Origin: Nannocystis pusilla
GTDB taxonomy: Bacteria > Myxococcota_A > Polyangia > Nannocystales > Nannocystaceae
Reading direction: 5' to 3'
NCBI RefSeq assembly: GCF_020073745.1
Contig: NZ_JAIRAU010000047.1
Coordinates: forward strand, 157,990 to 221,989
DNA length: 64,000 bases
Shown: positions 12,813 to 61,990 of the stretch, one piece after another
Layout of the letters: every line of letters starts with the position of its first letter
Position numbering within the stretch: position 1 is the first letter of the stretch
Notes under the pieces: generated by a model
Databases searched by the model: none
Told to the model about the DNA's origin: nothing
The model's input: only the letters and a program-made list of their open reading frames with translations
Program-made: the position numbers and the translations under genes

Positions 12813-14642
12813 TTGGCGGCCGTCCCGGCCCCGCCCGAGCCGCTGACCGCCGACGAGCAGCGCATGCTCGCCCAGGGCAAGCACGAGGCCCTGGCGCAGC
12901 TGCTGGCGCAGTCGGGCCGCCACGCCGTGGCCGGCTGGGTGCTCGAGCAGATCTGGGAGTTCGCCGGCGCCTGCGAGCACTACGCCCGCGCCGGCCGCCC
13001 GCTCGACGCCCTGCGCGCGGCGATCGAGCTCGGCCGGTCCGACGTCCTCGATCGCATCATCGCCGTGTTCACCGCCGCCGACGCCGACACGCGCCAGCAG
13101 GCCGCCGCGCTGCTGCAGCGCAAGGGTCGCCACGCCGACGCCGCCCGCGTCCTGGCCCTCGGCGACCACGACCCCGAGGCCCGCGCGCGCGCCCTCGTGC
13201 GCGCCGGCGATCGTCTCGGGGCCGCGCGCGTGCTCGCCGAGGCCGACCGCGTGCGCGAGGCCCTGGCGGTGTTGGAGCCGCTGCCCGAGCGCCACGGCCC
13301 GACGCTGCAGCTCGCCGCCGAGCTGTCGTGGGAGCTCGGCGACGCCGAGGCGGCGGTGCGGCGGGCCCAGGCGGCCATCCGCGCCGGCGGGATCGATCGC
13401 GCCGCGCTCGGCCGTCTGCTCGCACGCGGGCTCGGGGCATTGGGCCACGACCTCGCGGCCCAGATCGTCCTGCAAGCGCACGGCCCCGCCAACGGCCGCG
13501 GCGAGGCTCCTCCGACCGCCCCGGTGCCGGCGCGCTTCCAGGTCCGCGCCTCGCTGCCGGCCAGCTTCTCCGGCGCCGCCTACGAGGGCATCGATCGCGT
13601 CACCCTGGCCGAGGTCGAGATCCACCTCCTGCTCGCCGAGCTGCAGGAGGGCGGCGCGGCCGACCCCGCGGTCCAGGACGCGCTCGAGGCGTTCCACCGC
13701 CGTGCCCTCGCCGCCGCCGCGCTCGAGCACCCGGCGATCCGCGGCGTCGTCCAGTTCGACGCCCGCGCCGGCATCCTGATCTTGCCGCGCGAGGCCGGCA
13801 GCAACCTGCGGGCGCTGATCCGTCCGCCGGGCATGCCGCTGGCCCGCGCCCGCGCCCTGGTCGCGTTCCTGCTCGAGGGCCTGGCCGCCGCCCACCTGCG
13901 CGGCCTCGTCCACGGCTCGCTGCTGCCGGCCCAATTGGTGTGCGACGCCGCCGGCCGGCCCCTGCTCGGACCGTTCGGCGCCGACGCGATCGCCGGCCTC
14001 ATCGCCACCCGCACCGGCGCGCTCGAGGAGCTGCTGACGATCACCGCCCCCGAGGTCCGGGCCGGCGCCGCGCCCACCGCCGCGAGCGACATCTACTCCG
14101 TCGCCGCCCTGCTGGTCGCCCTCGTCGCCGGCAACCTCGGCGGCGCCGCGCCCGAGGCCCGCGCGCTGGTCGAGGACGCCCTCGCCGACGACCCCGCCAG
14201 CCGCCCCGACGCGGCCGCCCTGCTGGCGCGCATGCGCCGGCGCGTGGCTGACCTTCGAGACCTGTCCATGAGCACAGAGCCCTTACGACAGGACCCGGCG
14301 GTCATGTCCGATGATTCAGGCCTGCCCGCGCACGGCGTGGTGGTCGAGGCCGCCCCGGGCTGGGACGACGTCGCCCTCGACGCGCTGCTCGCGGCCGATG
14401 TCCCGGCGCTGCAGCCCGTCCTCGACCGACAGGGTCGACGGGTCGCTCTGGCCGCCTGGCCAGAGGGCTGTCGTCGGCTGGCCGACGATGTCCCGTTCGT
14501 TCAGCTCGCCCCGATGGCGATCGTCGACGCCCTGCCGGTCGAGGCCGCGGCAGCCGTGCGCGCGCGGCTGACCGCCGGCGCGTGGGTGGTGACGCCCGCC
14601 GGCGAGTGGATGCTGGCCCTCGATGAACTACTCACGCGGTGA
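12813..14642 (+). CDS. TPR-like N-terminal domain fused to a degenerate protein-kinase-like (pseudokinase) domain
   Basis: TTG start 2 nt after the lipase stop with GGAGGAG RBS. Kinase-like region has LVHGSLLPAQLV where HRDLKPxN is expected. APE motif (ITAPEV) and SDIYSVAALL (subdomain IX-like) are retained. Confidence 0.6.
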   Translation: MAAVPAPPEPLTADEQRMLAQGKHEALAQLLAQSGRHAVAGWVLEQIWEFAGACEHYARAGRPLDALRAAIELGRSDVLDRIIAVFTAADADTRQQAAALLQRKGRHADAARVLALGDHDPEARARALVRAGDRLGAARVLAEADRVREALAVLEPLPERHGPTLQLAAELSWELGDAEAAVRRAQAAIRAGGIDRAALGRLLARGLGALGHDLAAQIVLQAHGPANGRGEAPPTAPVPARFQVRASLPASFSGAAYEGIDRVTLAEVEIHLLLAELQEGGAADPAVQDALEAFHRRALAAAALEHPAIRGVVQFDARAGILILPREAGSNLRALIRPPGMPLARARALVAFLLEGLAAAHLRGLVHGSLLPAQLVCDAAGRPLLGPFGADAIAGLIATRTGALEELLTITAPEVRAGAAPTAASDIYSVAALLVALVAGNLGGAAPEARALVEDALADDPASRPDAAALLARMRRRVADLRDLSMSTEPLRQDPAVMSDDSGLPAHGVVVEAAPGWDDVALDALLAADVPALQPVLDRQGRRVALAAWPEGCRRLADDVPFVQLAPMAIVDALPVEAAAAVRARLTAGAWVVTPAGEWMLALDELLTR

Positions 14643-14681
14643 GGGCCGCGCGTCCGCCCGCCGGCGGCGAAGTCGGGGCCG

Positions 14682-14942
14682 CTAGGCGCGCATGCTGCGG
14701 CCGACGGCCAGGCGGTAGATGCCGAGCAGGATCAACGCGCCGACGATCGAGGCGATGATGCCCGGCCCCTCGTTGACGTGCGAGTACCAGCCCAGCGCGC
14801 GGCCGAGGAACGCGGCGACGAACGAACCGGCGACGCCGAGGAGCATGGTGGCGATGATACCGCCCGAATCCTTGCCCGGCATGACCATTTTGGCGAGTGC
14901 GCCGGCGATCAGGCCGACGATCAGCGTCCAGATGAACTCCAT
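14682..14942 (-). CDS. GlsB/YeaQ/YmgE-family small transmembrane protein
   Basis: MEFIWTLIVGLIAGALAKMVMPGKDSGGIIATMLLGVAGSFVAAFLG is the family signature. GGAGGAG RBS immediately upstream of ATG at 14942. Confidence 0.75.
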   Translation of the reverse strand: MEFIWTLIVGLIAGALAKMVMPGKDSGGIIATMLLGVAGSFVAAFLGRALGWYSHVNEGPGIIASIVGALILLGIYRLAVGRSMRA

Positions 14943-61358: not shown

Positions 61359-61975
61359 CGCGTCCCACCCATCACGGCGTCGATCAGCGCGTCGGCGTCC
61401 TCGCTCGAGAACGACTCCTTGAACTGCGGGTTGGGCGTCTGCTCCTTGCGCTCCCATTTGCGCGGATCGGGGCCGTAGCGCACGCGGGCGCGCTCGGGCG
61501 GCACGCCCTCGATGCGGGCCTTGCCCTCGGCGTCGAGCTTGCCCTTGATGATCGTCCCGTCGCGCAGCTCCACCTCGTACTCGGCGTTCTGCACCGGCTC
61601 GTCGTCGTGGTACCTGTGCTCGAGCAGCAGCACGGTGTTGCGGGCCTTCTCGCACTCCTCGCAGAACGGCTTGTCGGTGCGCAGCGCCTCGACCTGGGCC
61701 GTCGAGCCGATGAGCACCGTCGGGCAGCCGACGACGATCGTGCCGCCGTGGGTGGTCGGGTCGCCGAGGCGCGCCGCCGGCTTGTTGCCGATGAGCACCG
61801 TCGGCTCGCCGCGGGCGACGCTGTCGGGGCCGGTGGCGCACACCAGCTTGTCGCCCTCGCGCGCGGCCGGCATCATGCCGATGATCACGGAGGTCTCGCC
61901 GACGGCCACCGGACCGCCGACGTGGGTCGGCACCGGGCACACGTGCATGTCTGTGATGCGGGCTGCGGGCGGCAT
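61355..61975 (-). CDS. PAAR-domain protein with C-terminal extension
   Basis: ITDMHVCP...HVGGPV...TVLIGNKPAARLGD...HGG...GCPTVLIG matches PAAR repeats. Confidence 0.85.
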   Translation of the reverse strand: MPPAARITDMHVCPVPTHVGGPVAVGETSVIIGMMPAAREGDKLVCATGPDSVARGEPTVLIGNKPAARLGDPTTHGGTIVVGCPTVLIGSTAQVEALRTDKPFCEECEKARNTVLLLEHRYHDDEPVQNAEYEVELRDGTIIKGKLDAEGKARIEGVPPERARVRYGPDPRKWERKEQTPNPQFKESFSSEDADALIDAVMGGTR

Positions 61976-61990
61976 GACATGTCCCTCGGG

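Follow-up and report, generated by a model that had tools for sequence, protein, structure and literature searches.

A family of 14-bp palindromes arranged as a spacerless lattice near gene ends in Nannocystis and related Nannocystaceae

The 64-kb stretch of Nannocystis pusilla DNA analysed here (contig NZ_JAIRAU010000047.1, positions 157,990 to 221,989; 71.5% GC; hereafter the window) carries, from left to right, genes for a GMC oxidoreductase, a Ser/Thr kinase, endonuclease III, a second kinase, a PEGA-domain protein, a trypsin-like protein, a pectin-acetylesterase-like protein, a HEAT-repeat protein and a histidine kinase, followed by a type VI secretion cargo cluster. Dispersed between and within these genes are copies of a short palindrome, TGTCC-N4-GGACA, which occurs singly or tiled head to tail without any spacer. 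The original prediction, made from the letters of the window alone, had noticed this family as GGACATG(T/C)C-type motifs. All the sequences that it quoted were located in the window, with coordinates off by at most about 10 bp: GGTCATGTCCGA in three copies (14300, 40387 and 58131), GACATGGCTCTC in two (37872 and 51668), the perfect hairpin GGGACATGGCC-ttcg-GGCCATGTCCC (28541-28566), GGACATG-N10-CATGTCC (45466-45489), three direct-repeat pairs (55008-55031, 57667-57690 and 59724-59747), three motif copies 5' of the PEGA gene (39675, 39703 and 39759) and 20 ACATGT sites. The concentration in the right half is also real, as 18 of the 19 near-perfect GGACATGTCC decamers lie beyond 24 kb.

The copies obey a strict period. 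Among window sites matching GGACATGTCC at 7 or more of its 10 positions, 25 pairs are separated by exactly 14 bp versus about 2 at adjacent distances, and further peaks appear at 28, 42 and 56 bp. Spacing was also counted, like the gene gaps below, in 66 high-GC loci (607 kb) comprising the window, its Nannocystis orthologues and contigs from a metagenome scan. There, exact TGTCC-Nk-GGACA has 139 matches for k = 4 but 0-2 for any other k, with 115 matches to GGACA-N0-TGTCC and 77 to GGACA-N9-GGACA. As isolated CCTGTCC-N4-GGACAGG elements occur in a distant relative (locus L087), TGTCC-N4-GGACA is seen to be the basic unit; it reaches 18 bp with its extended arms, C(A/C)TGTCC and GGACA(T/G)G. 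Since units are tiled with zero spacing, their joint reads GGACA|TGTCC, which is the GGACATGTCC of the original prediction; its sole perfect copy is at 39759, within the array 39745..39796. The consensus is GGAC(A/C)TGTCC nnnn GGACA(T/G)G(T/C)CC, the four loop positions being free in sequence save that the first avoids A and the last avoids T. Arrays contain 2-8 units overall (2-6 in the intergenic clusters of the window) and frequently end as CCTGTCC ... GGACAGG(TG). The hairpins and direct repeats spaced by 6-8 bp that had been described do exist, but this description understated the 14-bp lattice from which they derive. One direct-repeat arrangement, GGACAGG-N7-GGACAGG in L087, is unable to form a hairpin. 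Sites were scored by mismatch counts, iterative weight-matrix refinement having been dropped after it drifted to a non-specific CATG motif.

The enrichment holds against Markov backgrounds of orders 0-3 computed in the window, so that the motif is not at Markov expectation: GGACATG/CATGTCC has 30 sites versus 5-8 expected, and the palindrome GACATGTC has 11 versus about 1-2. There are 19 decamers that share at least 9 of the 10 positions of GGACATGTCC, versus 2.1-2.5 in order-1 and order-3 simulations. Their density is 3.0 per 10 kb, as against 0.36 per 10 kb in a control set of 636 kb of unrelated high-GC bacterial DNA (from the unrelated bacteria that a BNR-repeat protein search returned besides a paralogous N. 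pusilla locus).

With at most one mismatch allowed, 21 sites are found in the window, 11 in an unlinked 22-kb locus of N. pusilla Na p29 (L209), 10 in a 3.3-Mb contig of another member of the Nannocystaceae and 2 in L001. By contrast, a 22-kb locus of Myxococcus xanthus has none, and the 636-kb control has no exact site and 0.017 sites per kb with one mismatch. The density of about 0.3 per kb (about 1 site per 3 kb) depends on the region; extrapolated from the sampled loci, it would amount to a few thousand sites per 12-Mb genome. The lattice is present in five other Nannocystis genomes and in many metagenome contigs of 70-77% GC; on one of the densest of these contigs, the nearest named relatives of a kinase are Nannocystis proteins (65-75% identity). 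Arrays were found in N. exedens, N. punicea and strain ILAH1, partly at non-orthologous positions, and an orthologous one in N. radixulma. Orthologues of the pectin-acetylesterase-like gene 47379-48578 lie only on short metagenome contigs, so the cross-species comparison does not come from the right half of the window. In phage and viral contigs only isolated single chance matches were seen, in low-GC DNA, and a phage origin was rejected on this ground. In all samples tested, the family is restricted to Nannocystis and related Nannocystaceae. Within it, array content varies: in Nannocystis sp. ILAH1 (L086, 4440-4740), a segment of about 90 bp with one CCTGTCC-tttc-GGCCATG element forms a tandem of three copies, while the matching gap of N. 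punicea (L085, 3810-3854) is single, 44 bp long and occupied by one array of two units; the neighbouring APH gene is missing from ILAH1.

Table 1. Arrays, single copies and look-alikes of the TGTCC-N4-GGACA family in the window, with their gene context
Positions	Strand	Feature	Context
14258..14309		Three to four units including GGTCATGTCC	At a dip of third-position GC and a change of coding phase inside open reading frame 12813-14642; coding or intergenic
24398..24421	-	Look-alike, outside the family in function	Encodes the GMC-oxidoreductase motif GTCRMG (frame read by hand); coding sequence conserved in all orthologues
28472..28509		Three-unit array GGGCCTGTCG cttg CGACATGTCC ttcg CGCCATGCCT	Convergent gap; 16 bp past stop 28456 of a small conserved open reading frame
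28541..28566		Perfect hairpin GGGACATGGCC-TTCG-GGCCATGTCCC, then TTTTAC	Abuts stop of Ser/Thr kinase gene 28569-29726 (-)
39661..39712		Four-unit array	Begins 1 bp past stop (39660) of kinase gene 37381-39660 (+)
39745..39796		Four-unit array	In register with the 39661 array (56 bp on); PEGA start codon (ATG, 39791) overlapped by the last unit
43156..43179		TGACATGTCT plus a degenerate unit	Divergent gap, 41723-43015 (-) / 43422-44543 (+)
43221..43244		Two units, exact TGTCC-gcga-GGACA	Divergent gap, 41723-43015 (-) / 43422-44543 (+)
44566..44589		Two units, exact TGTCC-cgag-GGACA	23 bp past stop of 43422-44543 (+); beside a separate GC-rich hairpin
45466..45545		Five to six units	1 bp past stop 45465 of 44722-45465 (+); convergent with trypsin-like gene 45607-47094 (-)
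51515..51538		Two-unit array	733-bp gap, 49097-51211 (-) to 51945-53576 (-)
51665..51682		Single palindromic copy CCCGACATGGCTCTCGGG	The intergenic GACATGGCTCTC of the original prediction
51767..51790		Weak two-unit array CGACCTGGCC ttcg AGACACGCCC	
51895..51932		Three-unit array	Ends 13 bp from stop (51945) of HEAT-repeat gene 51945-53576 (-)
54966..55045		Five to six units	Against stop (55041) of histidine-kinase gene 55041-56021 (-); gap apparently convergent
56052..56075		Two units, CCTGTC/CAGGTCC type	Between 55041-56021 (-) and 56420-57649 (-)
57667..57690		Two units GGACATGCCT gaaa GGACATGTCT	Between stop of 57722-58126 (-) and start of 56420-57649 (-); Tandem Repeats Finder period 14
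58131..58166		GGTCATGTCC gaaa GGTCAGG, then AGTCC-tcga-GGACAGG	Overlaps stop and last codons of DUF4123 gene 58133-59038 (-)
59710..59747		Three units GTACATGGTC, GGACCTGTCT, AAACCTGTCC	Inside immunity-protein-like gene 59035-59943 (-); family membership uncertain
61975..61998		TGACATGTCC ctcg GGTCAGATAC	42-bp gap, PAAR gene start to VgrG gene stop (61991)

The arrays lie preferentially at gene ends (Table 1). In the window, those at 28472-28566, 45466-45545 and, apparently, 54966-55045 occupy convergent gaps, and those at 39661, 44566, 51895, 57667 and 61975 begin 1-33 bp from a stop codon. Across the 66 loci, with genes called by third-codon-position GC, 54 arrays were counted in 84 convergent gaps, 47 in 208 co-directional gaps and 11 in 90 divergent gaps; arrays of at least three units number 19, 8 and 0, respectively. 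In convergent gaps, arrays lie at a median of 24 bp from either stop. Of those in co-directional gaps, 32 are closer to the upstream stop and 14 to the downstream start (medians of 52 and 133 bp). A second count with database gene calls for six loci pointed the same way, though less strongly (0.50, 0.21 and 0.20 sites per convergent, co-directional and divergent gap). As arrays are commonest in convergent gaps and rare in divergent ones, they do not behave as promoter operators. Published families of repetitive extragenic palindromes (REPs) show the same preference for convergent and unidirectional gaps (PMC3733652).

Between 39 and 59 kb, 5 canonical hairpin-plus-T-run terminators were found versus 4.1 expected, none of them at an array; this chance-level frequency makes another kind of gene-end signal plausible. 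In the same 20 kb (39000-58900), no sigma-70-type promoter-like site was detected, and neither these nor terminator-like sites exceed chance. The transcription signals of this genome evidently differ from the textbook consensus.

Some properties of the arrays point to base pairing. Large arrays fold beyond shuffled sequence (z = -3.6 to -5.3), whereas small ones do not: RNA folds of 45466..45545 and 54966..55045 reach -38.3 kcal/mol (z = -4.4) and -36.6 kcal/mol (z = -3.6), and 28472..28509 folds into a 14-pair hairpin. The array 28472-28566, beside the kinase gene, is kept at its orthologous position in 7 Nannocystis genomes. Its hairpin GGACATGGCC-TTCG-GGCCATGTCC and the T-run that follows are identical in 7 of 7 genomes, the 10-bp stem included; the pair at the stem base switches from G-C to C-G. 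Taking the two helices of the orthologous array together, 96% of cells are paired across the 7 genomes and 3 pairs are changed on both sides; two stem pairs of 28472..28509 show compensatory changes, and the loop-closing pair varies (GC, CG, UA or UG). Among the two-mismatch N4 sites of all loci, 7.8% have changes in both arms that preserve complementarity, versus 3.7-5% at other spacings, a modest excess. A search of Rfam matched the arrays to no known RNA family. In a second N. pusilla genome (GCA_049060185; L227, 1711-2876), gene calling splits the kinase gene beside the conserved array into parts of 268 and 117 residues, owing either to a frameshift or to an error of assembly.

Genes, too, contain copies. 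Those at 40373-96, within the PEGA domain, and at 37871 and 37914, within a kinase domain, are coding. The look-alike at 24398-24421 and the copy at 29007-30, which encodes the kinase segment RDVLSAML, were judged to be coding coincidences. Some in-gene copies lie in variable linkers, as in the L087 kinase and in a 42-bp (14-residue) Gly/Ser/Ala repeat of L096. In this last locus (10100-10340), lattice-like units recur with a super-period of 42 bp in an open reading frame of 1176 residues, as an in-frame, GAGMSGGTGASGPV-like, Gly/Ala/Ser-rich 14-residue repeat that may have been absorbed into a protein linker.

Other features of the window deserve mention. The type VI secretion cargo cluster (56420-64000, minus strand) has lattice elements at three gene junctions (57667, 58131 and 61975) and encodes VgrG (61991 onwards), PAAR, an unknown 472-residue protein, an Imm71/Imm72-like protein, a DUF4123 chaperone, a small open reading frame and a Tle1-like phospholipase. 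From about 18300 to 24200, a low-GC island (0.59-0.60 versus 0.71-0.75 around it), almost without lattice sites, encodes a DUF4062 protein and a small Ras/Arf-like GTPase-like protein; other Nannocystis have different genes 5' of the GMC oxidoreductase, and the island was probably acquired horizontally. A 906-residue protein with a major-vault-protein shoulder and repeat domains (30707-33427, plus strand) is encoded next to the endonuclease III gene nth (29925-30563) in all Nannocystis genomes sampled; the endonuclease III of the window is identical to a protein of Nannocystis pusilla. Two tRNA-like Rfam matches on the plus strand (33507-33573 and 35923-35990; 51 and 48 bits; model positions 4-67 and 3-68) have 49% GC in a 71% GC genome and unmatched acceptor stem ends, and stand next to DUF4215/fibrinogen-like genes. 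ARAGORN found no tRNA in the whole window; the two matches may be tRNA genes that are degenerate or unusual, or else tRNA-like elements. The DUF4215 gene 49097-51211 (minus strand) has at its 5' end 2.7 tandem copies of a 144-bp unit and, after them, a long GTCGTC-type repeat tract of 9/18 bp (50592-51279 in all), which probably encode an acidic or Thr-rich repeat region. In the first open reading frame (RidA/L-PSP-like), GGTAAC is repeated 10.3 times at 47-108 (91% matches) and gives the most over-represented 7-8-mer of the window.

Taken together, the family can be viewed, with moderate confidence and from sequence comparison, as lineage-specific extragenic palindromic repeats that act as bidirectional stem-loop elements at gene ends and are read by a specific factor. 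The proposed functioning would be as follows. Each unit or pair of units would form a stem-loop, identical on both strands owing to the true palindrome. It would thereby act at gene ends in both directions, in the formation or protection of transcript 3' ends or in the insulation of neighbouring transcription units, as was proposed for REPs and bacterial interspersed mosaic elements (BIMEs). The invariant stem sequence, the fixed length of the 4-nt loop and the freedom of its sequence suggest that a lineage-specific factor reads the arms, which might be a host protein or a copying enzyme. A REP-like palindromic family was one of the explanations offered by the original prediction, and it agrees with elements that are palindromic, clustered, apparently dispersed, lineage-specific, intergenic near stops and more frequent in convergent than in co-directional, and in co-directional than in divergent, gaps.

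Several observations weigh against a role as gene-end stem-loops. Under the database gene calls, 5 of 55 sites are in divergent gaps, and sites in called genes reach about 0.25 per kb, about 15 times the control rate. The T-run is missing in most arrays, 28541-28572 being the exception, and flanking T-runs are at background level; separate GC-rich hairpins beside arrays (44544-44563 and 45560-45590) could be the actual terminators. Covariation in the orthologous array rests on few independent events, essentially two clades, and most departures from the half-site or consensus are uncompensated. Spacers flanking two-unit dyads show marginal complementarity (1.37 versus 1.22 pairs of 4, p = 0.03). 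On the sense strand in co-directional gaps, G.U has no clear excess over A.C (41 versus 31), and stable UUCG or GNRA loops are not favoured on the sense strand, an apparent antisense excess coming from local duplicates. To judge from these patterns, the arms look as if they were read by sequence and not kept merely as a helix. A palindrome needed on both strands between convergent genes would also disfavour wobble pairs, so these RNA-specific null results are compatible with an RNA role.

The main rival is a lattice of protein on double-stranded DNA, in which a homodimer would bind each TGTCC-N4-GGACA and polymerise every 14 bp, the RNA hairpin being incidental. Such a protein could be a nucleoid-associated protein, an insulator or a recruiter of gyrase, and could act as a gene-end mark, a roadblock or a topological barrier. 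This explanation, which we regard as possible but distinctly less probable, accounts well for the rigid spacing (139 matches at N4, none at N3 or N5), the strictly zero-spaced junction, the conservation of half-sites beside four variable spacer positions, the mostly uncompensated half-site defects, the lack of strand asymmetry, the direct-repeat arrangements without hairpin potential in L087 and the tolerance of sites within genes. However, the compensatory changes outside or at the edge of the half-site in the 7-genome array favour pairing over base identity, and compensated double changes are modestly enriched. A DNA lattice alone also leaves the closeness of sites to stop codons unexplained, and its binding protein is hypothetical. 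More tentatively still, the Nannocystaceae may have a gene-end recognition system of their own, in which a lineage-specific dimeric protein would bind TGTCC-N4-GGACA and polymerise on the 14-bp arrays as a sequence-specific terminator, insulator or supercoil barrier. If true, this would be a bacterial counterpart of mTERF/Reb1-type protein-mediated termination or of gyrase recruitment at BIMEs, in genomes where the stretch tested has no surplus of canonical intrinsic terminators.

It is rather unlikely that the family is only a selfish, REPIN-like mobile or slippage-prone repeat without host function, copied by a hairpin-recognising transposase and surviving mainly 3' of genes. The placement would then be what remains after purifying selection against insertions in promoters and coding sequences. 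The apparently high copy number and the drift of the consensus (CATGTCC in Nannocystis versus CCTGTCC in L087) would be expected, as would local amplification (the 90-bp triplication of ILAH1 and duplications of 36 and 70 bp on the metagenome contigs L163 and L135) and the in-frame copies in variable linkers of the L087 kinase and the L096 repeat. On the other hand, loops and spacers differ among copies, unlike recent copies of a master element, and the array 28472-28566 is kept at its orthologous position in 7 genomes with a pairing constraint. Phage contigs have isolated chance matches only, the GTAG or CGTC tag is missing at array flanks, and no transposase turned up nearby, although no systematic search was made. 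The gene-end, lattice and selfish explanations are not mutually exclusive.

The original prediction had also suggested binding sites of a dimeric regulator. As operators of a regulon covering the kinase, PEGA, secreted-protein and type VI secretion genes, the arrays are most improbable. The palindromic half-sites at fixed spacing, a few arrays 5' of starts (39661-39796 and 57667-57690) or in a divergent gap (43156-43244) and arms that also fit ATGT-N8-ACAT, which may be the form of PadR-family operators, are in keeping with this idea, but arrays peak in convergent gaps, which have no promoter (none of those with at least three units is divergent), and are closer to upstream stops than to downstream starts. 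Moreover, the neighbouring genes share no function, and about one site per 3 kb far exceeds any ordinary regulon. The suggestion thus fails for promoter operators, while a dimeric factor reading half-sites is still plausible. The third suggestion, a restriction or uptake signature, does not fit a word that is 8-9 times over-represented rather than avoided, phased in 14-bp arrays and largely intergenic. Finally, chance, codon usage or purely local duplication has a negligible probability. A few copies (24398, 29007, 40373 and 37871) are coding coincidences, and much of the excess of decamers disappears under an order-5 Markov model. Even so, decamers are 8-9 times as frequent as expected, the controls show no exact phasing, and the lattice is found again at loci unlinked to the window, in metagenomes and in further species. 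Like an ordinary regulon and a restriction or uptake signature, chance is effectively excluded.

Among known systems, REPs and BIMEs are the closest. REP families lie downstream of open reading frames, prefer convergent and unidirectional gaps and form two superfamilies tagged GTAG or CGTC (PMC3733652). At the flanks of the Nannocystis arrays, GTAG occurs in 4 of 198 and CGTC in 19, the latter nothing unusual at a GC content of about 75%, so this REP tag is lacking. Both kinds of elements are short imperfect palindromes, in the Nannocystis family probably in many copies, with a species- or genus-specific consensus, mostly extragenic and 3' of open reading frames, single or in regularly spaced clusters and occasionally in genes. 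They differ in that the Nannocystis unit has 14-18 bp versus 20-40 bp for a REP, sits on a zero-spaced 14-bp lattice whereas BIMEs alternate orientation with conserved linkers, and has a loop that is free in sequence but invariant in length. We know of no counterpart of zero-spaced tiling among REP families. Intrinsic terminators are likewise stem-loops just past stops, and 28541-28572 resembles them by its GC-rich stem of 10-11 bp, UUCG loop and T-run. However, terminators share no stem sequence, whereas in the Nannocystis family it is the stem whose sequence is conserved, and nearly all copies lack a T-run.

DNA-binding proteins offer other parallels. MetJ binds tandem 8-bp met boxes in the promoters of one regulon, other ribbon-helix-helix proteins have tandem operators as well, and gyrase or IHF is found on the BIMEs of Escherichia coli. 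As in met boxes, a short palindromic unit is repeated 2-5 or more times without spacer, on which side-by-side dimers could bind in register; but met boxes have 8 bp and serve the promoters of one regulon, while the Nannocystis units have 14 bp, lie at gene ends and number thousands by extrapolation. Resemblances to the p53 half-site, PadR ATGT-N8-ACAT, the SsoII operator GGACA-N5-TGTCC and parS, some of which have a different geometry, were set aside. CdbA of M. xanthus is described as binding GC-rich repeats at over 500 sites, which are more frequent in intergenic DNA and hardly affect the transcription of nearby genes (PMC7156744). The likeness lies in a myxobacterial GC-rich repeat motif with a 4-bp spacer and hundreds of sites; the CdbA motif is described as a direct repeat (PMC7156744), and TGTCC-N4-GGACA is absent from the sampled M. 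xanthus locus. As a candidate reader of the arrays, CdbA is an analogy only.

A literature search returned nothing relevant on REPs of Nannocystis or myxobacteria or on TGTCC-N4-GGACA, and no link between REP-associated tyrosine transposases and myxobacteria. The family is apparently undescribed, as we could not find it reported; it is REP/BIME-like, with an unusual architecture. In genomes of 12-13 Mb and 71% GC where canonical terminators do not exceed chance (over the 20 kb tested), it provides a concrete handle on the boundaries of transcription units, with possible uses in the annotation of gene ends, in genome-wide enumeration, as bait for the factor that would read it and in reporter tests. 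The family could also mark contigs of Nannocystaceae in metagenomes. The catalogue of extragenic repeats gains a spacerless 14-bp palindrome whose loop never varies in length and which lacks the GTAG or CGTC tag. If it is only a REP-like selfish repeat, this would be a modest addition to a known class, whereas a dedicated protein binding at gene ends would raise its importance.

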